Source of the DNA: Candidatus Gottesmanbacteria bacterium
GTDB lineage: Bacteria > Patescibacteriota > Microgenomatia > UBA10105 > UBA927
Assembly (NCBI GenBank): GCA_023245355.1
Contig: JAHFKN010000003.1
Coordinates: 1 to 55,006 of the forward strand
Length of the DNA stretch: 55,006 bases
Direction of reading: 5' to 3'
In this document: positions 20,184-33,745 of the stretch, in pieces
How positions within the stretch are numbered: position 1 is the first letter of the stretch
Layout of the letters: each line of letters opens with the position of its first letter
Program-made: the position numbers and the translations under genes
The notes under the pieces: generated by a model
Database searches by the model: none
Told to the model about the DNA's origin: nothing
The model's input: only the letters and a program-made list of their open reading frames with translations

Positions 20184-21740
20184 ATGCCGGTATTATTAAA
20201 GAAGCATGGCTTCCATACGGCGGATTCCGCCAAAGAAGGAGCGCGCAGCGGATCAAAACACGCGATGCGTGTGTTATTTGTTACCAGTGAAATTGCGACA
20301 CTGTATAAGCGTGGAGGACTTGCCGATGTGAGTTACGCATTGCCTGTCGCACTGTCCCAATTGGGGGTGAATATATCCGTTGCCATGCCGTATTATGAGA
20401 GCGTCACAACCAAGGGTGTTACCTGCGTAGGACAGCTCGCTCTTGATTATGACCGACGGCGGGAACTCGTTTTTGTCTTCCGTGCGCTGCTTCCGCATTC
20501 GCATGTACGTGCGTATCTGTTCCGCCATCCGTTACTCAATAATTATGACGATCTCCATATCGCGGACCGGTTTGCATTTTTTTCCAAAGCCGTCGCACAG
20601 TTGTCGCTGTATTCAGAGGAAATGCTGGGAGGGCCGTACGATATTATCCACTGCAATGACTGGCATACGGCGCTTATCCCGCTTCTGATCGGCGAACAAA
20701 GTAAGGTAGGGTACCGGGAGCGGCCACGACCGCTATCGGCTGCGCCGAAGGCGCTGGCGGGCGGGGAAACTATCCAATCGAAGCGGGTAAAAACTATACT
20801 TACCGTACATAATTTGCTGTATCAGGGTGAGACAGGTTCATCGATCACACTCAAACTCGGATTTCCGAAACCGTTATTCCATCCGTTTATGACACCGCTT
20901 GGGCGGGCCGTACGGTTGCTCACCGAGGGATTTGAGTATGCAGATAAGGTCACAACGGTTTCTCCGACCTATGCCAAAGAGATTGCCGCAGGGAAGCACG
21001 GAAAACGCGTCGTAGAAGTATTCAGCCGCAGAAAAGACCGCATGATCGGTATATTAAACGGTTTGGACAGCAAACTGTGGGATCCCAGAAATGACCCTTC
21101 GCTGCCTGTCCATTACGATGCTTCGACGGTAGTTTCTGCTAAAAGAGTGATTAAAGCGCAGTTGCGGAAAGCGCTCAGGCTCCCGGAATCGGAAGCGCCG
21201 CTTTTCGGATTTGTCGGGAGGCTTGAAAGCAGGCAAAAGGGCCTGGATCTTATCGCGCGCGTGATAAAAAAGCTTGCGGGCGAAGCGTATCAACTGGTGC
21301 TTCTGGGTACCGGACAGAAGAAGCTGGTGGCTCTCTTTGAGCGCCTGGCGGCAGAGCATAAAAACGTCGTGTTTGTCCACACATTTGATGAACGGTTAGC
21401 TCGCAGGATATATGCCGGGAGTGATGTTATGCTTGTTCCTTCGAAATTTGAGCCGTGCGGTTTGACTCAGCTCATTGCCATGCGGTACGGGACATTACCG
21501 TTGGTACGGAAAACAGGCGGCCTTGCCGATACGGTGCACGACGGGAAAACCGGTTTTGTGTTTACGCCGTATACGAGTACCGCCCTTGCCGACAAGATGA
21601 AAGAGGCGATTGCCCTCTATCATGAGAAACCTGCCCGCTTTGAAGCGATGACGGCGCATGTGATGGGATTGGATTTTTCCTGGCAGCATCAGGTAAAAGA
21701 ATACCTCGCGTTATATCAAAGCCTGCTCAAATCTTCCTGA
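20184..21740 (+). CDS. glgA: Glycogen synthase (GT5)
   Basis: KRGGLADV, DIIHCNDWHT, TVHNLLYQG, TVSPTYAKEI, GILNGLD, RLESRQKGLD, PSKFEPCGLTQLIAMRYGT, TGGLADTV. Confidence 0.95.
   Translation: MPVLLKKHGFHTADSAKEGARSGSKHAMRVLFVTSEIATLYKRGGLADVSYALPVALSQLGVNISVAMPYYESVTTKGVTCVGQLALDYDRRRELVFVFRALLPHSHVRAYLFRHPLLNNYDDLHIADRFAFFSKAVAQLSLYSEEMLGGPYDIIHCNDWHTALIPLLIGEQSKVGYRERPRPLSAAPKALAGGETIQSKRVKTILTVHNLLYQGETGSSITLKLGFPKPLFHPFMTPLGRAVRLLTEGFEYADKVTTVSPTYAKEIAAGKHGKRVVEVFSRRKDRMIGILNGLDSKLWDPRNDPSLPVHYDASTVVSAKRVIKAQLRKALRLPESEAPLFGFVGRLESRQKGLDLIARVIKKLAGEAYQLVLLGTGQKKLVALFERLAAEHKNVVFVHTFDERLARRIYAGSDVMLVPSKFEPCGLTQLIAMRYGTLPLVRKTGGLADTVHDGKTGFVFTPYTSTALADKMKEAIALYHEKPARFEAMTAHVMGLDFSWQHQVKEYLALYQSLLKSS
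20730..20760. repeat. REP/RPE-like palindromic element inside glgA
   Basis: CCGCTA...GCGCC-GAA-GGCGC-TGGCGG hairpin, encoding an extra loop (PLSAAPKALAG) between the HCNDWH and TVHN motifs. Confidence 0.5.
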
Positions 21741-21819
21741 TTCTTACTACTTACTCCTGTGCGTTTACAAGTGTTTACAAGTAACTAATACTCCGATGCA
21801 GCCCGTTATGGCCGGGAAT

Positions 21820-22779
21820 TCAGGCAAGAGTATAGTAAACACTCCGTCCTTTGCCGCTTGAGGTAAGAAATCCATAGGAAACCAGCCGTGTCAGATCCCG
21901 GCTCGCAGTGATTTGCGAGATACGGAACCGTTTTTGCACTTCGCGGTTCGTGATTTTTGCACCGGGCATATCCAGCAGCATGCGTATCTGATTCTGGCGG
22001 GTATTGAGGACGCTGACGGAACCATTTCTGCGCTTTTTTTCCGTATCGGGTCCTTCGAAATTTCCAAGAAGCGTTTCATATGCACTGACAACGCTGTTTG
22101 TGTAGTATTCGAGCCAGACGGTCATCTGACCTAATTGCCGTATGCTGTGCAGCGCATGATCGTATGCGTTGGTGTCCCGGGTGAGTTCGGATTCCAGGCT
22201 CAGCATGCCGCGGCAATCATATCCGTGTCTGGTAAGAATGAGGCTGCTTATGAGAAATGTCATCCGCCCGTCTGAGTATTTGTGGAGGGGGGTGTGTGCT
22301 ATATATGCGTGCGTCAGACCAGCGGCAATGACAGGGTGATCCGGCTGTGTTTCTGTGTAGGCGATGAGGTGCTTAATATCGGCAGCACTTTCCCTGACAC
22401 ATCGGGAAATATGCCGGGACAGCATCGGAACAGCTATATGCATAAGTACTTCTATGGCTGATACGGTAAGAGGACGCGCTTGTCCCGTCCACTCGTCGCG
22501 GATGTACATAAGCGCCTGGCGATACAGAAGAGCCTGGTGCTCAATAGGGTGGGGACGTTTGGGGTTCCGGGTAAACAGTCCGGTGAGTTCCTGCATGGTC
22601 ATAGGAAGATTGGCCTGATGTAACGCCGCGAGGATACGCAGACATGTTGCTTCGTGCCGGAGTTCAATTTCTTTCCGGGGCAAGAGGGGTATGCTGAGGG
22701 CACGATTCCTGTATTGGTCAATACGTTTTGTATTGTGCTGGAGTAACGGTGAATAGGTGTATGCAATGGTTGCAGTCAT
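21820..22779 (-). CDS. Fic-like protein with degenerate Fic motif and C-terminal winged HTH
   Basis: HPVIAAGLTHAYIAHTPLHKYSDGRMT occupies the position of HPFxDGNGRxxR; C-terminal ITNREVQKRFRISQITASRDLTRLV...GKGRSVYY is a wHTH. Confidence 0.8.
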   Translation of the reverse strand: MTATIAYTYSPLLQHNTKRIDQYRNRALSIPLLPRKEIELRHEATCLRILAALHQANLPMTMQELTGLFTRNPKRPHPIEHQALLYRQALMYIRDEWTGQARPLTVSAIEVLMHIAVPMLSRHISRCVRESAADIKHLIAYTETQPDHPVIAAGLTHAYIAHTPLHKYSDGRMTFLISSLILTRHGYDCRGMLSLESELTRDTNAYDHALHSIRQLGQMTVWLEYYTNSVVSAYETLLGNFEGPDTEKKRRNGSVSVLNTRQNQIRMLLDMPGAKITNREVQKRFRISQITASRDLTRLVSYGFLTSSGKGRSVYYTLA

Positions 22780-22916
22780 GCCGGTATGTGAAAATATCCC
22801 GGTGATCGTACCATGGAGCTGAGAAAAAATCAAAACGCTTTATAGGCTGTTCATACGGGAAAAGTGCGTTTATGTGATAAGAGAACGATAAGATTATGAT
22901 CCGGTTCGTATGGTAC

Positions 22917-22946
22917 TTGACAACATGTGAAATTCTGACGTACAGT
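22917..22946 (+). promoter_or_regulatory. Sigma70-like promoter of the HTH-dCache/collagen operon
   Basis: TTGACA-18nt-TACAGT. Confidence 0.6.
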
Positions 22947-23062
22947 GGATAGAGAGAGATTCCCTATTAGTAATAACTGTGAAACTCATTGGGAAGCACT
23001 TGTAAAAACCTGCGTATTTTACGCGTCATAACGGGCTAAAGGGTTTGGGAGCCTGCCTAGCT

Positions 23063-24994
23063 ATGCCCAAAACATACACCGTTAAGGAAATTGCCGATAT
23101 ATTAGGGTTCAGCACGAACAGTATCTACACGTTCCTCAAAGAGAAGCGGATTAAAGGCGTACGCATCGGCAAAGGCAGATTCAGAATCCCTGAAGAAGAA
23201 TTATCGCGCATCCTGCATCTTTCTAAAAAACCGGTACGGGATGATACTCTACTTCACGTGTCCGATATTCTCTCTCCGTCTTTGATGTCTGCAGCAGGCG
23301 ATGCCGCGGTGTTTGTTCAGCGTGATCCCGGTTCTTCCCGTCATCAGAATGATACCGTTCTTATACCGAATCTGTTTGATTGGTTCGTCGGGTTAGCAGC
23401 GATTATTACCGGGGTCGCGCTGTTTATATTTAATGCGTCCATAAGCTCACCGAGTCTTTCAAGATTCACTGCATTGTTTCCGTTTATCAGGGTGGTGCTG
23501 ATTGCGGCAGGGTTGGGTGTTATCGTAAGCGGTTCATTGGTCCGTAACAGGATATGGCACGGAGTATTTTTACTCTCGTTATCACTGATGGGGTTTGCAA
23601 ACGTATTCGGGCTCGCACGCACGGGAGATATAGAAGGTGCGCTTATTTACGCAGGTATGGCGCTTGTGACCGGAATAGCCGTCGTCGTGCCGCTCGGGGG
23701 AGTCGTTTCTGTTCTCATCTACGCGACGCTTTTGGCTGTGTTTATCCCGGTAACTATGGTGTTTTTCCCATACGAAGAGCATTTACAGGCAGCTTCCGTA
23801 TTTTTTGGTATGCCGGTATTGACTATGGGCATGATTGCTTCCCTTGCTGCAGCCATCGTGATTTCAGGATTCTGGATAGGATACGCAAAGCACCGGGCAG
23901 CATTTATTGTATCAACTGCTTTTGCCGCAGCGTGTGATCTGGCATTAGCCATATGGTATGCCAATATGCAGTACTGGAGCAGGTCGTTTTTTATGGTCGT
24001 TGTCGGTTTTTTTACCGGATTGTTACCGTACTGGTGGCTGTTGCAGCAGCACGCCCTCCGGCGGCACAAAATTGTATTACACGGGATATTTGTTGCTATC
24101 GGCGGGATACTGCTGGTTACCATCCTTGTTATAAGTTTGCTGCAGCAAAATGTATGGAACTCCAAACAAATAGAATTTTTGAATAAAATTAAAATTGCCC
24201 AAAATGAACTTCAAAATGCCACGATGTCAGTGCAAAGTTCCATAACGGTGGCTTCGATGAACGCTGAGTTTGTCGATACGGTGGTGAAACAGGATTTGCC
24301 CCGGCTGACGGCCAACGCAAAGATTATATATGAAAGCAATCCTGATATACGCCGCCTCGTTTTTTTGGATAAAGACGGCACGGGCGTAGCCCTTTATCCG
24401 TACGGGACATTTGATGAACCGAATTTCGCGTACCGTGATTATTTCCAGAAGCCAAAGGCGACCGGCAAGCCGTACGTGTCCGATGTGTTTAAATCTCTGG
24501 TGGATCACGCGGGAAGATATGTCGCCGTCGTGTCCGTTCCGCTTCACGATAAGAAAGGGAATTTTGTCGGTGTTATTGCTGCATCTTTGGCGCTCGACAG
24601 ATTAGGCATGCACCTGGCGCAAATTGCGGCAGACAAGCAGGGAGAGTATTTTGTCGTAGTTGATGCAAAAGGGAAAATTCTGACGCATCCGGACGAAAAA
24701 TTAGTCGGTACACAGATACCGGTAACCGATCTTCTTGTCAAAGGGATAAACGGGGAAATGGGCGTGCAGCAAAGTACGTTTATCGACGGCTCGTACGGCA
24801 TGGTTGCCTATGCGAATGTCCCGGCGCTCCGTTGGGGGATTAGTCTGAGGGCTGTATCAAGTAATGTTTTTGAGCTTACAGCCATGACGATAACGGCGAT
24901 ATTCGGCGTAGTAACCGTTATCATGCTTTCCGCAATTGCGGTTATTGGCGTTGTATGTGGCCGGACCAGATTCGAAAAAGAAAGCGGACCATAA
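23063..24994 (+). CDS. Membrane-integral sensor/regulator: HTH_17 (excisionase-like) + ~10 TM + dCache + terminal TM
   Basis: N-terminal [43 protein letters not shown]; long hydrophobic block; dCache motifs YRDYFQK...PYVSDVF...VSVP...GVIAA, YFVVVD.KG.ILTHPD, WGI. Confidence 0.85.
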
Positions 24995-27900
24995 TGACGC
25001 CAACACAAAAACAAAAACTGATTCGGCTGAAATCCGCGCACGGCGGATTTCTGGCTGAAATGGGTTTTCCCCGACCTGGCGGGCCGGTTTCGTTTTGGGG
25101 GACACAGTTGATCCTGCCGGTGTTATTTTTTATCGTTTTTGGAGGAACCGCATGGGGGATAGTAACCGTCATACAGCAGAAGAATCTTCCGCAACCACAA
25201 GTCCGTGTAGCAGAGTCGGGCGCCGGTCCTACAATTCATGCGTTGACTCCGGCTGTCGTACGGGAAAGTAAATGGGCACGGCCGTTTGTGGTATTGGTTC
25301 AGCGGGCGGACGGATCGTTTGCCTACGCGTATGTAGAAAATGCGCTGGTCGCAAATGGTGCCTATGTGGGAGACATCACTGTACGGTATACCAACGGAGA
25401 GCACGGAATAGTCCGCTCCGAAAACGGCATATTCAGATTTTTTCTTACCAAACGGGGGCTTTCCGAGTCTGTCCGGATCATAGAGCCTGTTATCAGCGGG
25501 ATAACATTGCCTGATCATAGTATATTGTTGGCTAAATTTACCGACGGACGGATCATCGGTGAACAATTGACCGGACAGTTTACCGCGGTGACGGTATCTG
25601 AAAATCTGCAGATATCCGGCAACCTTTCGGCTGACGGTGAATTTATTTCGCTTACGCTGGAGCCGACGCTAAAATCTCTGGATACCGGAATGGCCATGAT
25701 TCAGCGGGAGGTACTGAAAATGGCGTTAGCAGGGACTGGTGATTCCAGCAGTGTCCTCGGTATTACGACAGATACGGCTGAAAATGTGAATATACCGATT
25801 TTGTCTTCAAATATAAGCTCAAACATGATAATCCAGCGGTTTGATGGAGAGGGAGTGATACGTATTGTTACAAGAAGTAACAATATAGATCAATCTATTA
25901 CAAACACGCAAAATCTGAATCTATCATCTGATTCAAATACGAATAATCAGTCTTCTCAGCTTGCGCTTAATCAGGGATTTTATCCCTCATCGGGCGGATC
26001 TGCAGGTGTTGCGGGGGCAACAGGCGCGACGGGAGCGCAAGGTATAAAAGGTGATTCCGGTGCAAACGGTTCTCAGGGTTCCAACGGAACAAATGGTCCG
26101 ACGGGGGCGAGCGGTGTAGGAGAATTAGGGCCGATCGGTCCGACAGGGGCTACCGGTACAGGGGGAAGCGGAAGCGGCGATCCCGGCGCAGATGGACCTA
26201 CCGGTTCAACAGGGGCTACCGGAATCACTGGTGTTACCGGAGTGTCAGGTCCGACAGGTGCTACAGGATCTACCGGCAACGCGGGTGCAGCCGGTCCGAC
26301 TGGAAATACAGGATCTACCGGAGGTGCAGGACCAACAGGATCGACAGGAGCAACGGGAACGGCGGGAGTCACCGGTCCGACGGGTTCTACCGGATCAACC
26401 GGTGTAGGAGGTGCAGCAGGACCTACAGGAGCAAGCGGAGCGACAGGTGTTGCAGGGGCCACCGGTCCGACGGGTTCTACCGGGGCAACTGGTATAGCAG
26501 GAGTCTCCGGTCCGACCGGTTCTACAGGGTCAACCGGTGCAATAGGCCCGACAGGCTCCACGGGATTAACAGGAATCAGCGGAGAAACCGGTCCGACGGG
26601 AGCAAGCGGTTCCACCGGTACACAGGGCGCAGTCGGTTTTTCAGGACCTACCGGTTCGACAGGTGCGACTGGTTCTGCGGGTGCCAATGGTCCGACGGGA
26701 GCGAGCGGTTCCACCGGTTCTCAAGGTGCTGCCGGACCGACAGGCTCTACAGGATCAACCGGAACTGCGGGTGCCAATGGTCCGACGGGAGCGAGCGGTT
26801 CCACCGGTTCTCAAGGTGTTGCCGGTCCTACCGGGAGTACGGGAGCAACAGGATCTGCAGGAGTAAGCGGACCTACAGGAAGTACAGGTTCTACAGGAGT
26901 CGCGGGAACAGCCGGTCCGACAGGATCGACAGGAACAACGGGTACGCAAGGTGCATCCGGTCCCACGGGAAGCACCGGATCGACCGGTAATCAAGGCAGT
27001 GTTGGTGTAAGTGGTCCCACGGGAAGCACCGGAGCTACTGGTGGTGTTGGCGTATCCGGGCCAACTGGTTCTACGGGGTCGACAGGAACAGTTGGTTCAA
27101 GCGGTCCGACCGGTTCTACAGGAACTACCGGACAAGGAGGGCCGACCGGAGCTACAGGCCCGACCGGTTCACAAGGCGGAGCAGCCGGAGCTTCAGGTCC
27201 CACAGGAACTACAGGCGCAACCGGTTTACAAGGCGCAAGCGGTCCGACCGGAGCTACAGGCCCGACGGGTGAAATCGGTGTGAGTGGTCCGACAGGATCC
27301 ACCGGTGCAACGGGGAGCGCCGGCTCTTCAGGCCCGACCGGTTCTACCGGATCCACAGGATCTATCGGAGTATCAGGCCCGACTGGTGCAAGTGGCGCAA
27401 CAGGAGCTGCCGGTGCTTCTGGTCCGACGGGAGCAAGCGGTGCAACCGGAACTGCCGGAAGTGCAGGCCCGACTGGTAGCACAGGCGCCACTGGTAATAT
27501 AGGTAGCTCAGGTCCTACCGGCAGCACTGGCGCTACCGGATCTGCCGGTACATCCGGCCCAACAGGTTCGACAGGATCTACAGGTTCTGCAGGTTCATCC
27601 GGTCCGACGGGATCTACCGGGGCAACGGGAAGTGTCGGAAGTTCCGGTCCGACAGGTTCTACCGGCTCCACCGGAAATCAAGGAAGTGTCGGAAGTTCCG
27701 GTCCGACGGGATCGACAGGTGCAACAGGAACTGTTGGTGAAAGCGGGCCAACAGGAAGCACCGGATCAGCCGGCACTGTCGGGAGTTCCGGACCCACTGG
27801 TTCAACAGGTGCTACCGGAGGGATTGGTGCTTCAGGTCCTACGGGAGCAACCGGATCAACAGGAACACAGGGTTCGGCAGGAATTGACGGCGCAGATGGC

Positions 27901-30900
27901 CCAACAGGTTCTACGGGAGCAACCGGAGGTATTGGCGCGAGTGGTCCCACAGGTTCAACAGGATCTACTGGCGCACAAGGATCTTTGGGTCCAACAGGTG
28001 CTACTGGTACAACGGGATCTCAAGGTTTACAAGGTTCTTCAGGCCCGACCGGATCTACGGGAGCAACCGGTGTTGCGGGAGTAACCGGGCCTACCGGGAG
28101 TACGGGTGCAACAGGAACACAAGGCTCTTCAGGCCCGACCGGTTCTACTGGTTCAACGGGAAGCATTGGTTTATCCGGTCCGACGGGAGCGAGCGGCTCC
28201 ACCGGTTCCGCAGGTCAGGCGGGAAGTTCCGGTCCTACCGGAAGTACGGGTCCGACCGGGGCTAGCGGAGTAAGCGGGCCAACCGGAAGTACAGGTGTCA
28301 CTGGTTCCGCCGGTGCTGCTGGTCCGACAGGTGCAAGTGGCGCCACGGGGACTGCCGGAGGTGCAGGCGTATCTGGTCCTACAGGTTCAACAGGTGCCAC
28401 AGGAAATGCCGGTGCAGCTGGTCCAACCGGAGCAAGCGGAGCCACAGGATCTGTTGGAGTATCAGGTCCCACGGGTTCAACAGGTGCCACTGGTTCTGCA
28501 GGTGCGAACGGTCCGACAGGTGCAAGCGGATCAACAGGAGCTCAGGGAAGTGCAGGCCCTACCGGTTCAACAGGAGCTACAGGAACTGCGGGAGCCGCCG
28601 GCCCGACAGGGTCTACCGGATCCACAGGAAATGCAGGAACAGCAGGCGTCAGTGGCCCAACGGGATCGACAGGTGCAACAGGAACTGTTGGTGAAAGCGG
28701 GCCAACAGGAAGCACCGGATCAGCCGGCACTGTCGGGAGTTCCGGACCTACGGGTTCAACCGGGTCCACCGGTACACAAGGTGTAAGTGGTCCGACCGGT
28801 TCAACAGGATCTACCGGAGGCATTGGTGTATCAGGTCCAACAGGTGCTACTGGTACAACGGGATCTCAGGGTTCACAAGGTTCTTCAGGCCCGACCGGAT
28901 CTACGGGATCTACAGGAAGCGCAGGAGCTGCCGGTGCTTCTGGTCCGACGGGAGCAAGCGGAGCGACGGGAACTGCCGGAAGTGCAGGTCCGACTGGTAG
29001 CACAGGTGCCACTGGTTCTGCAGGTGTTGCTGGCCCAACTGGCCCAACTGGTTCAACCGGTTCTACTGGTTCTGCTGGTCCGACGGGAGCAAGCGGAGCG
29101 ACGGGAACTGCCGGAAGCGCAGGTGTATCTGGTCCTACAGGCTCAACCGGCGCCACCGGTTTACAAGGTACAAGTGGTCCGACCGGTTCTACCGGATCCA
29201 CAGGATCTATCGGAGTATCAGGTCCGACAGGTGCAAGCGGTGCAACAGGAGCTGCCGGTGCTTCTGGTCCGACGGGAGCAAGCGGAGCCACAGGAACTGC
29301 CGGAAGTGCAGGTGTATCTGGTCCTACAGGCTCAACCGGTGCTACAGGAACTGCAGGAGCCGCCGGTCCAACGGGAGCAAGCGGAGCGACGGGAACTGCC
29401 GGAACCGCAGGTGTATCTGGTCCTACCGGTTCAACAGGAGCCACAGGAACTGCGGGAGCCGCCGGCCCGACAGGGTCTACCGGATCCACAGGAACTGCCG
29501 GAACCGCAGGTGTCAGTGGCCCAACGGGATCGACAGGTTCTACGGGATCCGCAGGTGCTGCAGGTCCGACAGGATCGACAGGAACAACAGGATCAAATGG
29601 TCCGACAGGGGCTACCGGAAGTACGGGATCCGTCGGAGCGATACCGGATAATTCTCTTGATGTGAGTAAATGGTCAGCAACCAGCGCGCTCAACATCAGT
29701 AAAGCAATTACATTCGGCGGGGCCGCATTAGGATTGACGTTCACCAATGACGGTTCAGGCAATTTTCTTGTCAATACATCGAGTACCGGAGATTTCCTTG
29801 TTCAGGACAATGGCGTCAATGCAATACAGGTTGACGGGAACGGCGGTGCGATCAATATCGGAGCAGCCGGTTTGGTAACGATAGATGCGGGTAGTGCCGG
29901 AGTGAACGTCGGCACGAGCGCCAATGCACAGACAGTTACTGTCGGTAACGTGACCGGAGCAACTGCCGTAAATATCAATACCGGTACGGGTGGCATAAAC
30001 TTCGGTGATAACGCAAACACGAAAACGATCGATATCGGAGGCGTAACCAACTCCGGAACGGATACGATAAATATCGCGACCCAGGGAACTGCCGCAGATG
30101 TTGTTACCATCGGAAACTCCAATGCATCAACGACCGTTGCCATCACCGGAGGAAGTGCGTGGTCCATAACAGCTGCAGGCGTACTGACGGTTGCATCCTG
30201 TACGGGCTGCGGCGGAGGGGGAGCGCCGGATACTGCAAGTTTTGTCGATACGTCACCCGCCGCAATGGCAGATAACGACACGACAGAACTGTTTAATGAT
30301 GCGACGAAACCAAACATTACGACGGATTCTACGTCAGCCACGGTATTGGTTTCCGTTGTCGTGACTGACGCATCAGCCACGAGTACCGACGATGAATTCG
30401 ATGCAATACGGATCGTGCGGGAAGTAAACGGTACTGACCCGTCGTGTTCCGCAGATCCCCAGGTGGGCTCTATCATGCAAGGAGGATTTGTCACCGCTGC
30501 GACTCACCCATGGAGCGCATCAGGAACATTTCTTGACAGTCCTGCTACCGCGGGTGTCATAAAATATACGGTCTGTACCAGTGCGCAGTCCGTAGGCACC
30601 GTTGATAATACTCCCACCAGTGTTGAGGTAACGTTGGTTGAACTGGGAGCCGACTTGGCAGAAAATTATTACACATCTGACGATTCAATCGGCCCGGGAG
30701 ATGTTGTCGTTATAGATCCGTCATTGCCTGCCGGAGTGAAGAAAGCCAGTACCCCGTATGATGCAAAAGCATTAGGCGTCGTTTCGACCGTTCCGGGAAT
30801 TACCTTAGATGATGCAATCGGCTTAGGATACGGTAGACCTGTTCCTGTGGCTCTGGCAGGAAGAATTCCGGTGAAAGTTTCAACAGAAAACGGCAGAGTC

Positions 30901-32226
30901 AAAGCAGGGGATTTGCTCAGCCCGTCGGCCATACCGGGAGTGGCAATGAAAGCGACTAAAGCAGGGCAGGTTATCGGTCAGGCGCTGCAGGATTTCAGCT
31001 ATCCGGACGGTGAAGTAGGCTTGGTCGTCGCGTTTGTGAAAACGGATTATTCCTTAGGTAGCAACCTCACCGACTTATTACCGGGACTTACTGCATCGCA
31101 GGAAGTGCCGCTTGGGAAACTCGCGCTGGCATACTTTATGTCCCAAAAGGAACAACTCCAAACCTCGGTTACTCTGTCGGAAATTGTGACTGACAGGGTT
31201 TCAGCAGGACTGGAAGTCATCTCTCCGAAAATCGTCGTTGACGAACTGATTGCGCGTTCCATCCAGCCGGTTGAAAAAGACCTGACAGTGACACTCGGTG
31301 CCGATGGCACGTTTATTCTGACCGGTGGTCGGACCGATGCGACGTCTTCGGCACAGCCGGTTATTACGTTTGACAGCTTCGGTAATGCGTTTTTTGCCGG
31401 AACCGTCACTGCGGATACACTATCCGCCAGACAGATTGTCGGATTAGACTTTGCCACACAGGCAAGTGTATCTGCGGAAGCATCCTCATCTGCAAATATA
31501 TTGTCTTTCATGTCTTTTATACAGGATTCGATCACATTTATTACCCGCGTCGTATTCCGGTCTCCGGCAGAGTTTTTGGCAGATGTCGTGTTCCGCGGAC
31601 GTGTGGTGTTTGATAGAGATACGGCCGGCCGGGCGGTAATTCCGGCCAGCACGTCTTCGGTGACCGTCGTGTTCGATCGTCCGTTTGCCGAGCCGCCGGT
31701 CGTCACGATTTCATTAACGCTTAAGGAAGCAACTGACAGCGCATTCTTAGCCGATGCAGTCAGGGCTGCCGTTGCAAGCGTTACCCGGGAGCAGTTTACT
31801 ATTATATTGGATACATCCGTACCCCGGGATCTTACATACAGCTGGGTAGCACTTGCCGTCACCAACGCCAGGAGTGTTGTCGGAAAAAGGCTGGGAGAAG
31901 GAGGAACTGTAGCAGGGAGTAATATAGAGAATATACCGTTGACCCCCACGGGTATGCCTGCAACTCCGGCACCGACATTTATCCCGACGATGACGCCGAC
32001 GCCTACCGTGATAGCAAGCAGTTCAGGTCAGACGGTTACGGTGCGCGCAAATGAGCCGGGATATGCGCGCATGTTTGAGAATCCTTCGGAAGGTGCATCA
32101 GAATCCGGCCGCATTCCGTCCGGTATGGTTGTATCGTATACAGAAATGCAGGACGGGTGGTATCATGTCATATACGAAGCACTTACAGGATGGTTGAGCG
32201 GAGCATCTGTTTCTGTGAATCCATAA
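24994..32226 (+). CDS. Giant membrane-anchored collagen-like fibre protein (~2410 aa) with Peptidase_G2-like, lectin-like and SH3b domains
   Basis: TAATG stop/start overlap with the upstream gene; N-terminal TM; Gly-X-Y tract; ADLAE...GDVV...LGVVST...[12 protein letters not shown]...GDLL; [13 protein letters not shown]...YSWVA; C-terminal GWYHV...GWLSG. Confidence 0.9.
25996..29643 (+). repeat. Collagen Gly-X-Y repeat tract (~405 triplets; [15 protein letters not shown])
   Basis: 3648 nt of near-continuous GGN-NNN-NNN periodicity with only a few register breaks. Confidence 0.97.
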
Positions 32227-32272
32227 TCATTTTGTTGAAAATACCCGGGGAACGTGATTTATAATGAAAAGT

Positions 32273-32950
32273 ATGTTTAAAATCCCGAACCGCATTATTG
32301 TAATTTTTTGCTTTGTCATTGCACTTCTTGCCGTCGGGTCCTCAGTGTTTTTTTATACCAAATATCAGTCTTTGGCGAAAAAATCCGCGTCGAACAGTAA
32401 AGATGATGTCGCGATCACGGTTGCGGCTGTCGGTAAACTTATGTTGCTTCCGTCTGATGAAATACCGACGGTCGCGACGGTGTCAGATGCAGAAAAGCTC
32501 AAAGGTCAGTCTTTTTTTGCTGCGTCCCAAAATGGTGACAAAGTCCTTATTTTTACGCAGGCAAAGAAAGCAGTACTATACCGGCCGTCTTCCAATATGA
32601 TTATCGATGTGGCTCCCGTGAATCTTGGTACGGATGCCAGTGCGTCCGCAACACAGAAAGAATCAGCTCCGACGTTTGTCTTATATAACGGTACCAATGT
32701 GACGGGACGCACCAAAGCATACGAAGTAACACTCAAGGGGTTGATAGCAAACGCGGTTGTCGTAAACCGCGATAATGCCGGCAAAAGGGATTATGCCAAA
32801 AGCGTCATTATTGACCTGACGGGGACTAAATCCGCACAGGTGTCTGTATTTGCCAAAACGCTGGGACTGGACGTGAGTACGTTGCCCGAAGGGGAAACCA
32901 AACCTGACGGCGCTGACTTTCTTATTATTTTAGGTGCTGACAAGAAGTAG
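32273..32950 (+). CDS. Membrane protein with CPR-type domain and LytR_C-like C-terminal domain
   Basis: N-terminal TM; VGKLMLLPSDEIPTVATV...FF...NGDKVLIF; LYNGT...G...NA...DFLIILGAD (LytR_C-like). ATG 7 nt after TATAAT. Confidence 0.8.
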   Translation: MFKIPNRIIVIFCFVIALLAVGSSVFFYTKYQSLAKKSASNSKDDVAITVAAVGKLMLLPSDEIPTVATVSDAEKLKGQSFFAASQNGDKVLIFTQAKKAVLYRPSSNMIIDVAPVNLGTDASASATQKESAPTFVLYNGTNVTGRTKAYEVTLKGLIANAVVVNRDNAGKRDYAKSVIIDLTGTKSAQVSVFAKTLGLDVSTLPEGETKPDGADFLIILGADKK

Positions 32951-32962
32951 TATACTGTCGGT

Positions 32963-33358
32963 ATGGAAAAAAAATCTGTTATCGTGGCGTTTCTTGTTCT
33001 TTCCCTGCTTGCCGTGGGCGGATCGAGCGCAGGGATATACTATTATTTCCAGTATCAGGCGCTTTCACAGCGTGTAAAAGATCCGCAGGGAGAAGTAAAA
33101 GACATACTGAGTAAAGTGGGAAAGCTTATTGAATTGCCGACCGGGGAAGAGCCGACCATCGCCACGGTCCAGGATGCCGAGCGGATTAAATCCCAGCCGT
33201 TTTTTTCCAAAGCACAGAACGGGTACCGGGTCATTCTGTATTCCAACGCAAAATTGGCGATTCTTTTCGATGAGAAGGGCAATAAGATTATTAATGTCGG
33301 AGCTATTAACCTGAGTACGCCGTCAGCGGCACAGCCGGAGCTTTCACCCACTCCGTAA
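32963..33358 (+). CDS. Paralogue of the upstream gene lacking LytR_C
   Basis: VGKLIELPTGEEPTIATV.DAE.IK.QPFF..AQNG.RVILY aligns with 32273..32950. Confidence 0.8.
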   Translation: MEKKSVIVAFLVLSLLAVGGSSAGIYYYFQYQALSQRVKDPQGEVKDILSKVGKLIELPTGEEPTIATVQDAERIKSQPFFSKAQNGYRVILYSNAKLAILFDEKGNKIINVGAINLSTPSAAQPELSPTP

Positions 33359-33406: not shown

Positions 33407-33745
33407 ATGCAAAATTTCCATGATCAAAAGCTCTGGCAGGATGCGTTCGTCGTATTAATGGAGGTCCATGACACGTTCGACGACATGCGCGATGGTGCAA
33501 ACGAAGAAATTGTCGAAGATGTCATTGAAAGTTCAACAGATGTCGCGGCAAAAATCGCAGACGGATTATCCCGCGCCGACAGGAGATTCGGTCGTCAGGT
33601 ATTGCTCGACGCGATCGGTATGGTGGCAATGGTGCGCACGCATTTGGCAGTGGCATGGGGCCGGGGACTGGTGTCCGACGATATGTTTAAATCCATGGAC
33701 GATAAATACGCGGCACTGACTGAGAATCTTCAGCGCGCCAGATAA
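33407..33745 (+). CDS. Four-helix-bundle protein (23S rRNA-IVP-like family)
   Basis: F.DQKLWQ.A, S..VAAKIADG.SR, A.G....RTHL.VA..RG. Confidence 0.75.
   Translation: MQNFHDQKLWQDAFVVLMEVHDTFDDMRDGANEEIVEDVIESSTDVAAKIADGLSRADRRFGRQVLLDAIGMVAMVRTHLAVAWGRGLVSDDMFKSMDDKYAALTENLQRAR

Follow-up and report, generated by a model that had tools for sequence, protein, structure and literature searches.

Gene organisation at the locus

A stretch of 55,006 nucleotides from a Candidatus Gottesmanbacteria bacterium (assembly GCA_023245355.1, contig JAHFKN010000003.1, positions 1 to 55,006), referred to below as the window, encodes on its forward strand a membrane-bound sensor with a helix-turn-helix (HTH) domain and, overlapping its 3' end, a giant collagen-like fibre. 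This sensor–fibre pair, together with the direct repeats that precede it and the Fic-like gene beside it, is the subject of the present study (Table 1). Patescibacteria, an abundant and largely uncultured group, are believed to lead a life in attachment to other cells, and to our knowledge host finding and the control of attachment have been worked out among them solely for the pili of certain Saccharibacteria. The window belongs to a contig of 191 kb, and the genome comprises 1.275 Mb in 12 contigs. Of the sequencing runs listed for positions 22700-26000, five are of DNA, three of them from a single groundwater study that is possibly the origin of this genome, and none is of RNA.

Sensor, fibre and two small genes follow one another in series on one strand in the list of open reading frames (ORFs), as an original prediction made for this DNA had proposed. 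The sensor ORF begins at 23045, or at 23063 when counted from its ATG, and closes with a TAA stop at 24992-24994, while the fibre ORF begins at 24955, or at its in-frame ATG (24994-24996), extends to 32226 and encodes 2410 residues. Stop and start codons are joined in the sequence TAATG (24992-24996), an overlap that had likewise been noted, is confirmed by reading the sequence, and recurs among orthologues.

Table 1. Features of the sensor–fibre locus and its immediate flanks, in window coordinates
Feature	Positions	Strand	Basis or remarks
Sensor	23063-24994	+	Pfam, model, Foldseek, alignment
Sensor HTH_17, cytoplasmic (predicted)	23063-23215	+	Pfam, alignment
Sensor, about nine membrane helices	23372-24127	+	model; disordered linker precedes
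Sensor dCache, extracytoplasmic (predicted)	24260-24868	+	Pfam, Foldseek
Sensor, last membrane helix	24881-24967	+	model
Fibre N-terminus: short cytoplasmic tail, membrane helix, all-beta domain	24994-25743	+	searches, model
Fibre membrane helix	25111-25182	+	residues 40-63 from Met 24994
Fibre all-beta N-domain, conserved	25249-25743	+	found only beside sensors
Collagen-like stalk	25996-29643	+	Pfam, NCBIfam, triplet count
Non-collagen head with short Gly/Thr/Asn-rich repeats, possibly beta-helical	29644-30651	+	sequence
Probable Peptidase_G2-type intramolecular-chaperone domain	30652-31134	+	homologue profile
H-type lectin domain	31660-31851	+	Pfam H_lectin
Bacterial SH3 domain at the extreme C-terminus	32065-32214	+	Pfam SH3_3; follows Pro/Thr linker
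Promoter-like site TTGACA-18-TACAGT	22917-22946	+	10/12 matches; upstream of sensor
Proximal operator-like array, consensus ACTTGTAAAAAC, 11-bp register	22966-23009	+	between promoter and start codon
Leader element GGGTTTGGG..CTGCC	23041-23057	+	by eye; just 5' of sensor start
Distal repeat array, 2-3 copies 10 bp apart	21740-21782	-	between glycosyltransferase stop and Fic-like gene stop
Fic-fold protein with C-terminal winged helix	21820-22782	-	ORF to 22833; likely start Met at 22782
Two paralogous single-pass membrane proteins, the first with a LytR_C-like end	32264-32950, 32963-33358	+	flanking genes

Conservation of the sensor–fibre pair

Two genome sets were surveyed, one of 87 genomes from the order, including 6 of a sister family, and the other an even sample of 401 genomes from the class. 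Within the order, the sensor is present in 39 of the 87 genomes and the N-terminal domain of the fibre (N-domain) in 37, one genome carrying two sensor–fibre pairs, and for each of the 38 N-domain matches there is a sensor match immediately upstream on that contig and strand. The two sensor-only genomes have the locus cut by a contig end, and in the six genomes of the sister family neither sensor nor N-domain was found. Across the class sample the N-domain occurs in 26 of 401 genomes; nine matches fall outside the home family, in five other families, and every one of these nine has a sensor match directly upstream. Conservation of the gene neighbourhood, which bears decisively on the original prediction, therefore holds for sensor and fibre in the order and in five further families alike.

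Sensor and fibre constitute a tightly conserved, usually translationally coupled pair, and the association is real and strong: stop and start codons overlap at 25 of 37 loci, with the two genes separated by 58-173 nucleotides at a further 10. The module recurs in at least six families of one class, and the sensor family has about 150 members. Presence of the cassette is patchy, extending to 9 of 17 genomes of the genus and to roughly half of the sampled genomes of its family. At several distant loci the stalk lacks collagen, so the conserved unit consists of the sensor and the fibre base, the shaft and the tip being variable.

Some copies of the module appear to be in decay. At L021 (G013:C12) the sensor has come apart into two pieces, an ORF with the HTH alone and a body. 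At L068 (G343:C4) only a 77-residue HTH ORF is left and the fibre N-domain is split between frames, on which grounds this locus may be decaying; it still has its repeats. Many loci, moreover, run into a contig end inside the fibre gene; assemblies thus often break within fibre genes, and surveys of called proteins may under-count them.

The sensor

Domain searches and structural modelling bear out the order HTH_17, several membrane helices and dCache that the original prediction had given for the sensor, both Pfam domains scoring above their cut-offs and the model placing about nine helices between them. HTH_17 (PF12728) covers residues 11-56 (E 6.5e-9, 36.4 bits against a cut-off of 27), the NCBIfam model TIGR01764 matches the same domain at 33.1 bits (cut-off 28.8), and dCache_1 covers residues 407-598 (E 1.2e-21, 77.8 bits against 45). 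The sensor model was built with 36 orthologues, 3 of the 39 loci being omitted (one split gene and two contig-end cuts), and reached a predicted local distance difference test (pLDDT) score of 85 and a predicted template modelling (pTM) score of 0.75. It shows the HTH, a disordered linker (residues 53-95), about nine membrane helices, a long helix leading into the dCache domain and a final membrane helix. From this helix layout it follows that the HTH would lie inside the cell and the dCache domain outside, and the sensor is accordingly modelled as a cytoplasmic HTH and an outward-facing dCache domain joined by a body of ten membrane helices in all. With a DNA-binding domain, a membrane span and an outward sensor domain in one chain, it has the layout of a transmembrane one-component regulator; it lacks the OmpR/PhoB-type winged helix and the single membrane span of ToxR-like proteins, and the Pfam scan found no OmpR-type domain.

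Of all parts of the sensor the HTH is much the best conserved, carrying 15 of the 21 invariant alignment columns in a family whose overall identity is 23-57%. It resembles the mycobacteriophage excisionase Xis Gp37 (4j2n, E 0.0011), and database records label sensor homologues, which are entered under Candidatus Gottesmanbacteria or 'Patescibacteria group', as 'excisionase family DNA binding protein'. The membrane domain has no Pfam family, and its look-alikes in the Atlas are all below 0.9 and unnamed. Within the nine-helix domain (residues 100-330, window positions 23360-24052), W107, G117, G150 and W305 are invariant, and R143, W165, W324 and Q361 are near-invariant residues of the sensor.

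A Foldseek search matched the dCache domain of the sensor to those of Mlp24, PctA and KinD, with E values of about 1e-9 (1.4e-9) and TM scores of 0.7-0.8 on the target; the search with the whole sensor model returned dCache matches only. Amino-acid sensors of the dCache_1 type fix their ligand by its carboxyl and amino groups through three conserved residues, Arg, Trp and Asp. Alignment with PctC and KinD indicates that the sensor keeps the pocket Arg (that of the KinD 'DRSFF' and PctC 'RAWY' stretches), while a Tyr aligns with the PctC Trp and a Ser with the PctC Asp; among the 36 sensors, Arg458 is conserved in 26, Tyr460 in 32 and Ser508 in 24. Because Tyr and Ser replace the PctC Trp and Asp, the alignment argues that this is not a canonical amino-acid receptor pocket.

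The fibre

The fibre layout envisaged in the original prediction, a membrane helix followed by collagen, G2-like, lectin-like and SH3b parts, stands for the helix, Collagen, H_lectin and SH3_3, whereas its G2-like part has no Pfam match in the window's own copy and was recovered through a profile of homologues. The N-domain is predicted with confidence over residues 86-250 (block pLDDT of at least 86), although its fold found no match in the PDB (best E 0.05, TM below 0.2) or in a library of viral folds (best E 0.007, TM 0.09, weakly MORN-like). For both the N-domain and the G2 domain, this gene is the sole match within the window's genome.

The stalk matches Collagen (PF01391) at E 1e-154 and the NCBIfam model SclB at E 4.5e-197, the latter score deriving from the repeats alone, and contains 404 Gly-X-Y triplets in four runs. 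Given the collagen triple-helix rise of 0.286 nm per residue, it would be about 348 nm long if triple-helical. Thr occupies the Y position in 217 of the 404 triplets, and so Thr-rich a stalk makes glycosylation plausible. The head region yielded a single weak Pfam match (S_layer_N, E 0.019). Scanned alone, the fibre tail matches H_lectin at 34.4 bits (cut-off 24) and SH3_3 at 34 bits (E 3.4e-8, cut-off 27); no usable match to the C-terminus came from the Atlas search and none at E<=1 from a single-sequence PDB search. The fibre sequence contains no LPXTG motif, its C-terminus being the SH3 domain.

With regard to the G2-like domain, the window's own copy gave no Pfam Peptidase_G2 match at E<=5, and PF11962 is matched by 13 of 18 homologous domains (best E 2e-5), the window's copy not among them. 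The profile of all 18 nevertheless matches the phage phi29 protein gp12 (6qz9, E 7.4e-6; 3gqh, E 1.7e-5), and the match falls exactly at the start of the deposited C-terminal fragment. Asp D20 and Glu E23 of the profile do not vary among the 18 sequences, and their counterparts lie in the 'DFAE' with which chain 3gqh opens; in the window the conserved Asp is codon 30652-30654, opposite the residue at which the C-terminal fragment of phi29 gp12 starts. By analogy with that protein, trimerisation of the fibre head is probably nucleated by a self-cleaving Peptidase_G2 chaperone domain, which may cut itself off once the trimer has been nucleated, and the lectin and SH3b domains would probably sit C-terminal to the cleavage site. 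The presence of these two domains makes host tethering plausible.

Other giant ORFs occur in the same genome (G000), including one of 10,844 residues (C1:47413-79947, reverse strand) and a second collagen-like ORF of 4,453 residues, 3,183 of them in Gly-X-Y runs (C3:14874-28235, reverse strand). ORFs of at least 1000 residues make up about 8.7% of the genome, one antisense shadow ORF included; the other giant ORFs all lack both the fibre N-domain and the G2 domain, and no sensor adjoins any of them.

Direct repeats upstream of the sensor

Tandem direct repeats of ACTTGTAAAAAC lie between promoter and sensor start, with at least one matrix match at all 36 usable loci and at least two at 35 of them; three loci were dropped, their start not being placeable, and those 36 loci also served to train the matrix. 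For this reason the core hexamer was counted separately. Its frequency per 150 nucleotides is 2.9; a control set of 151 other upstream regions from these loci gives 0.21, and the opposite strand 0.08. Of 69 distances between neighbouring copies, 54 are 10, 11, 12 or 22 bp. At distant loci outside the training of the matrix, the core is found in eight of nine, with at least two copies in seven of nine. The TTGACA element and a 'cAGTaGATAtAG' stretch also recur, by eye, at the promoter position of other loci.

Clusters with at least two hits number only eight in the 1.275 Mb genome, and two of these bracket the Fic-like gene. The remaining six sit inside genes or lack the 10-bp register, and no wider regulon was found in this genome. 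A comparable distal cluster, its position read by eye, is present at about 15 sensor loci in either orientation. Where 58-173 nucleotides separate sensor and fibre, the gap holds at 7 of 10 loci a hairpin followed by a repeat in reverse orientation (by eye), so that the fibre seems there to own a copy of the site. One locus, L049 (G070:C72), has besides the proximal array two more of four repeats each, both upstream of the Fic-like gene and some 1.6 and 2.1 kb ahead of the sensor start, so the number of operator-like clusters at a locus can exceed two.

Two studies describe how BldC and recombination directionality factors occupy direct repeats spaced by one turn of the helix (PMC5859096, PMC7498355), and the HTH relatives Xis, BldC and Apl are all direct-repeat binders with one-helical-turn spacing. 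This habit, the conservation of the HTH, the persistence of repeats where the Fic-like gene is missing and the absence of an array at a locus that has the Fic-like gene without a sensor lead us to assign the ACTTGTAAAAAC repeats, with reasonable confidence, to the sensor HTH as its likely operator.

Closer to the start codon, 'CTGCC' stands 0-5 nucleotides before the ATG at many loci across families, and 'GGGTTTGGG' 10-20 nucleotides further upstream at some, the position of this leader element being shared by L013-L017, L035, L039, L054, L057, L060 and L064-L068. No Shine-Dalgarno-like GGAGG is evident in the leader. The region 21700-25200 gave no match in an Rfam scan, and the leader RNA folds no better than shuffled sequences (z 0.53).

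The divergent Fic-like gene

A gene for a Fic-fold protein adjoins the sensor divergently at 32 of 39 sensor loci and is a frequent third member of the cassette. A profile of 27 orthologues matches FICD at E 5.2e-14 and SoFic, which has a C-terminal winged helix, at E 2.7e-6, whereas the single sequence alone reached only E 0.64. In the alignment, for which 26 of 31 references were used after redundancy and short pieces had been cut, the stretch aligned to HPFxDGNGR is not conserved; of HxFx(D/E)GNGRxxR it retains the final Arg, with neither the His nor the GNG conserved. The protein is, on this alignment, catalytically degenerate, and its invariant residues are located in the winged helix. 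Full-length orthologues occur without a sensor in at least three genomes. Eight of the nine distant loci lack the Fic-like gene, and seven of those eight keep the repeats.

Predicted contact between sensor and fibre base

Since sensor and fibre co-occur so strictly, their joint folding was attempted, using sensor residues 96-643 and fibre residues 36-256, each with its own separate alignment. The models scored 0.59, 0.62 and 0.61, while the highest-scoring of three controls reached 0.00. In benchmarks, the 0.61 mark is reached by 58 of 80 solved complexes and by 2 of 110 mismatched pairs, counts that hold only roughly here because own alignments were used. The runs share at least 53% of their contacts, with partner pLDDT values of at least 68. 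In the modelled interface, the membrane-distal half of the dCache domain (residues 420-525) rests on fibre residues 116-218, and the contacts made there involve the invariant P446 together with the near-invariant sensor residue Y445 and fibre residue G138. Modelling thus supports docking of the sensor dCache domain on the membrane-proximal domain of the fibre.

Interpretation and alternatives

The reading that fits these observations best, and one that we hold to be somewhat better than an even bet, is that of a self-regulating transmembrane regulator that reads its own fibre of about 350 nm. The HTH would bind head-to-tail on the ACTTGTAAAAAC repeats, which recur every 10-11 bp downstream of the promoter and ahead of its own operon's start; some genera seem to have such sites before the fibre gene too. 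Occupancy of the repeats by the HTH would set the expression of the sensor–fibre pair. On the outer side, the dCache domain would dock on the basal domain of the fibre and, being docked there, would allow the regulator to report on the fibre, be it on its presence, its assembly or its load; a carboxylate ligand might be read together with it. The pair would then act in the manner of ToxR/ToxS or VtrA/VtrC, with the catalytically dead Fic-fold winged-helix protein as a probable, frequent third member. If the contact between dCache and fibre base is true, it would widen the range of what Cache domains sense, and the small set of membrane-bound regulators that act through a partner protein would gain a new type.

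Several points weigh against this reading. To reach the HTH, any signal would have to get past ten membrane helices and then a disordered linker of 40 residues, and the modelled interface is no more conserved than the rest of either protein (entropy 2.03 against 2.14, p 0.29, for the sensor; 2.07 against 1.78, p 0.91, for the fibre). The retention of Arg458 and Tyr460 in most sensors leaves room for a small ligand. Cleavage of the G2 domain in the manner of phi29 would release the lectin and SH3b domains from the fibre, weakening the idea of an attachment tip. As to the repeats, their p-value overstates the case because the loci are kin, the nine distant loci being the fairer test; they run from below the -10 box to the start codon and could therefore act at the level of RNA; and the winged helix of the Fic-like protein, also highly conserved, could be what binds DNA here.

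Foremost among the alternatives, although rather unlikely, is a classical ligand-gated one-component system along the lines of the original prediction, in which the dCache domain would bind a small molecule and the HTH would switch the fibre operon with no contact between sensor and fibre. The likeness of the dCache fold to the small-molecule receptors Mlp24, PctA and KinD, the retained Arg of KinD 'DRSFF' and PctC 'RAWY', and the combination of repeats with a conserved HTH, which suits a regulator, all speak for it. Such a system would, however, leave unexplained both the restriction of the fibre N-domain to the side of the sensor (38 of 38 and 9 of 9 matches) and the pass of the fold model, and the residues at the PctC Trp and Asp positions depart from the canonical amino-acid pocket.

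A bolder and more tentative proposal, on balance improbable, casts the fibre as an antenna and the pair as a contact sensor: capture of a partner cell or particle by the distal head would be felt, as a pull or a rearrangement at the fibre base, by the dCache domain docked there, altering the occupancy of the repeats by the HTH. Were it true, a tiny and probably host-dependent bacterium would turn distant touch into gene regulation, and both a protein-binding Cache domain and a transcription factor with its own appendage as 'ligand' would be new.

The sensor might also be mainly a scaffold, holding the fibre base and tethering the locus to the membrane through the repeats for transertion, so that the giant protein would be made and inserted in place, with little or no signalling. 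Repeat arrays on both sides of the Fic-like gene, the common translational coupling and the predicted contact between both proteins agree with this idea, as do the link drawn in one study between membrane-bound regulators and transertion (PMC9977878) and the anchoring of DNA by RacA-type HTH proteins mentioned in another (PMC5859096). Such a role would, however, hardly seem to call for a complete dCache fold whose pocket is conserved in part, and the two genes stand apart at 10 of 37 loci, with a hairpin between them at 7; we regard a mere scaffold as quite improbable.

Less likely still is that the repeats are bound by the Fic-like winged-helix protein or another factor in place of the sensor HTH. 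Most invariant residues of the Fic-like protein do lie in its winged helix, and its gene is flanked by both arrays in the window; yet the repeats are kept in the absence of an orthologue at L017, L035, L039 and L057 and at seven of eight distant loci, and a locus where the Fic-like gene stands without a sensor is devoid of an array. A prophage or mobile-element remnant, finally, to which the 'excisionase' label beside a collagen-like tail fibre with a phage-type G2 chaperone domain and the patchy presence (9 of 17 genus genomes) might point, is unlikely to the point of being barely credible, the 'excisionase' being fused to ten membrane helices and a dCache domain, the scanned flank ORFs of the window yielding no recombinase or phage-structural Pfam match, and the cassette having the same flanks in two genera.

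Flanking genes and bounds of the cassette

The two small membrane proteins downstream of the fibre are paralogous, as had been proposed: the product of the first gene (P0003) matches the segment encoded at 32975-33352 with 41% identity (E 3.5e-25). The LytR_C-like domain ascribed to the first falls below the PF13399 cut-off in the window's own copy (16.9 bits against 22.2) while covering profile positions 7-85 of 86, and 49 of the 120 listed homologues of the small protein carry PF13399. The -10-like boxes attributed to the small genes are at chance level, with 8 promoter-like sites against 10.1 expected from shuffles.

A role for these proteins as dedicated anchoring or assembly factors finds no support. 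Their family has at least 1316 members across Patescibacteria and occurs in 24 of 41 relatives, 10 of which have neither sensor nor fibre; in the genus, the small pair stays with a downstream housekeeping block (a 23S-IVP-like protein, ribulose-phosphate epimerase and an aldolase) whether the module is present or absent, and in three relatives three other genes intervene between fibre and small pair. Being broad, retained in module-free genomes and separable from the fibre, the small membrane proteins were rejected as parts of the module. The upstream glycosyltransferases were also considered as dedicated fibre-glycosylating enzymes, which is not supported, the 526-residue enzyme being kept in module-free genomes: it is present at 66-79% identity in four of five genus members without the module and lies near a small-protein gene in two of them.

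Because the small pair and the glycosyltransferases persist without the module, the cassette can be placed between two conserved flanks, and the same flanks surround it in two genera. What emerges is a defined module with clear bounds, comprising a regulator, a probable operator and a giant fibre with predicted sugar-binding and wall-binding domains.

The downstream flank includes a 112-residue member of the '23S rRNA intervening sequence protein' family (33407-33745; PF05635, just below cut-off), which is 71-93% identical across six genus loci and always follows the small pair. The small LytR_C-like family is also found near other giant surface genes with fibre-like C-terminal domains (G001:C19, G010:C52, G021:C7 and C9, G018:C2, G015:C3), the small gene lying a few kb downstream on the same strand; this proximity may be due to chance, giant genes being frequent.

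Comparison with known systems

No counterpart of the sensor–fibre pairing turned up in the literature searched, supplements aside. The search found nothing that joins Gottesmanbacteria with collagen and, for collagen-like surface proteins of Patescibacteria, unrelated work only; a preprint on pili of the candidate phyla radiation (PMC13278184) mentions neither collagen nor Cache, and a survey of transmembrane regulators (PMC10269533) mentions none of Cache, HTH_17, excisionase or Patescibacteria.

Individual parts of the module nonetheless have recognisable relatives. In common with BldC and Xis factors, the sensor has a small MerR/Xis-like winged helix and direct-repeat sites a helical turn apart in variable number, as described for BldC and excision factors (PMC5859096, PMC7498355); unlike those free cytoplasmic proteins of about 60-70 residues, its HTH is predicted to be membrane-tethered, is fused to a sensor and is a putative binder. 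ArnR and ArnR1 of Sulfolobus are likewise membrane-bound one-component regulators controlling a surface filament (PMC6396743), although their domains are unrelated and ArnR is not encoded overlapping the filament subunit.

On the side of the fibre, the long Gly-X-Y stalk with a globular end recalls Scl1 and Scl2 of streptococci, BclA of the Bacillus exosporium and Lcl of Legionella, and BclA shares the Thr-rich triplets of the stalk. Unlike these proteins, the fibre is anchored by a predicted N-terminal membrane helix and has no LPXTG motif, its stalk is several times longer (404 triplets), it ends in a probable G2 chaperone domain with lectin and SH3b, and it has a dedicated coupled regulator. 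Its G2 profile resembles the phi29 gp12 pre-neck appendage and tailspikes that carry a self-cleaving chaperone at the C-terminus in spanning the start of the released gp12 fragment with an invariant Asp and Glu of 'DxAE'; unlike gp12, the fibre is cellular, predicted to be membrane-anchored and fused to collagen, and some 340 residues (lectin and SH3b) follow the putative self-cleaving domain.

The closest likeness lies with ToxR/ToxS and VtrA/VtrC, with which the pair shares a predicted cytoplasmic DNA-binding domain, membrane span and outward sensor domain, as well as a partner gene immediately downstream, often overlapping, whose product is here predicted to bind the outward domain. It departs from them in having an Xis/BldC-type HTH (HTH_17) in place of an OmpR-type one, ten modelled helices in place of one, a dCache domain on the outside, and as partner a 2410-residue anchored fibre in place of a small periplasmic protein. 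By analogy, the logic of the sensor–fibre module thus comes nearest to that of ToxR/ToxS or VtrA/VtrC, built from different parts and with a giant partner.

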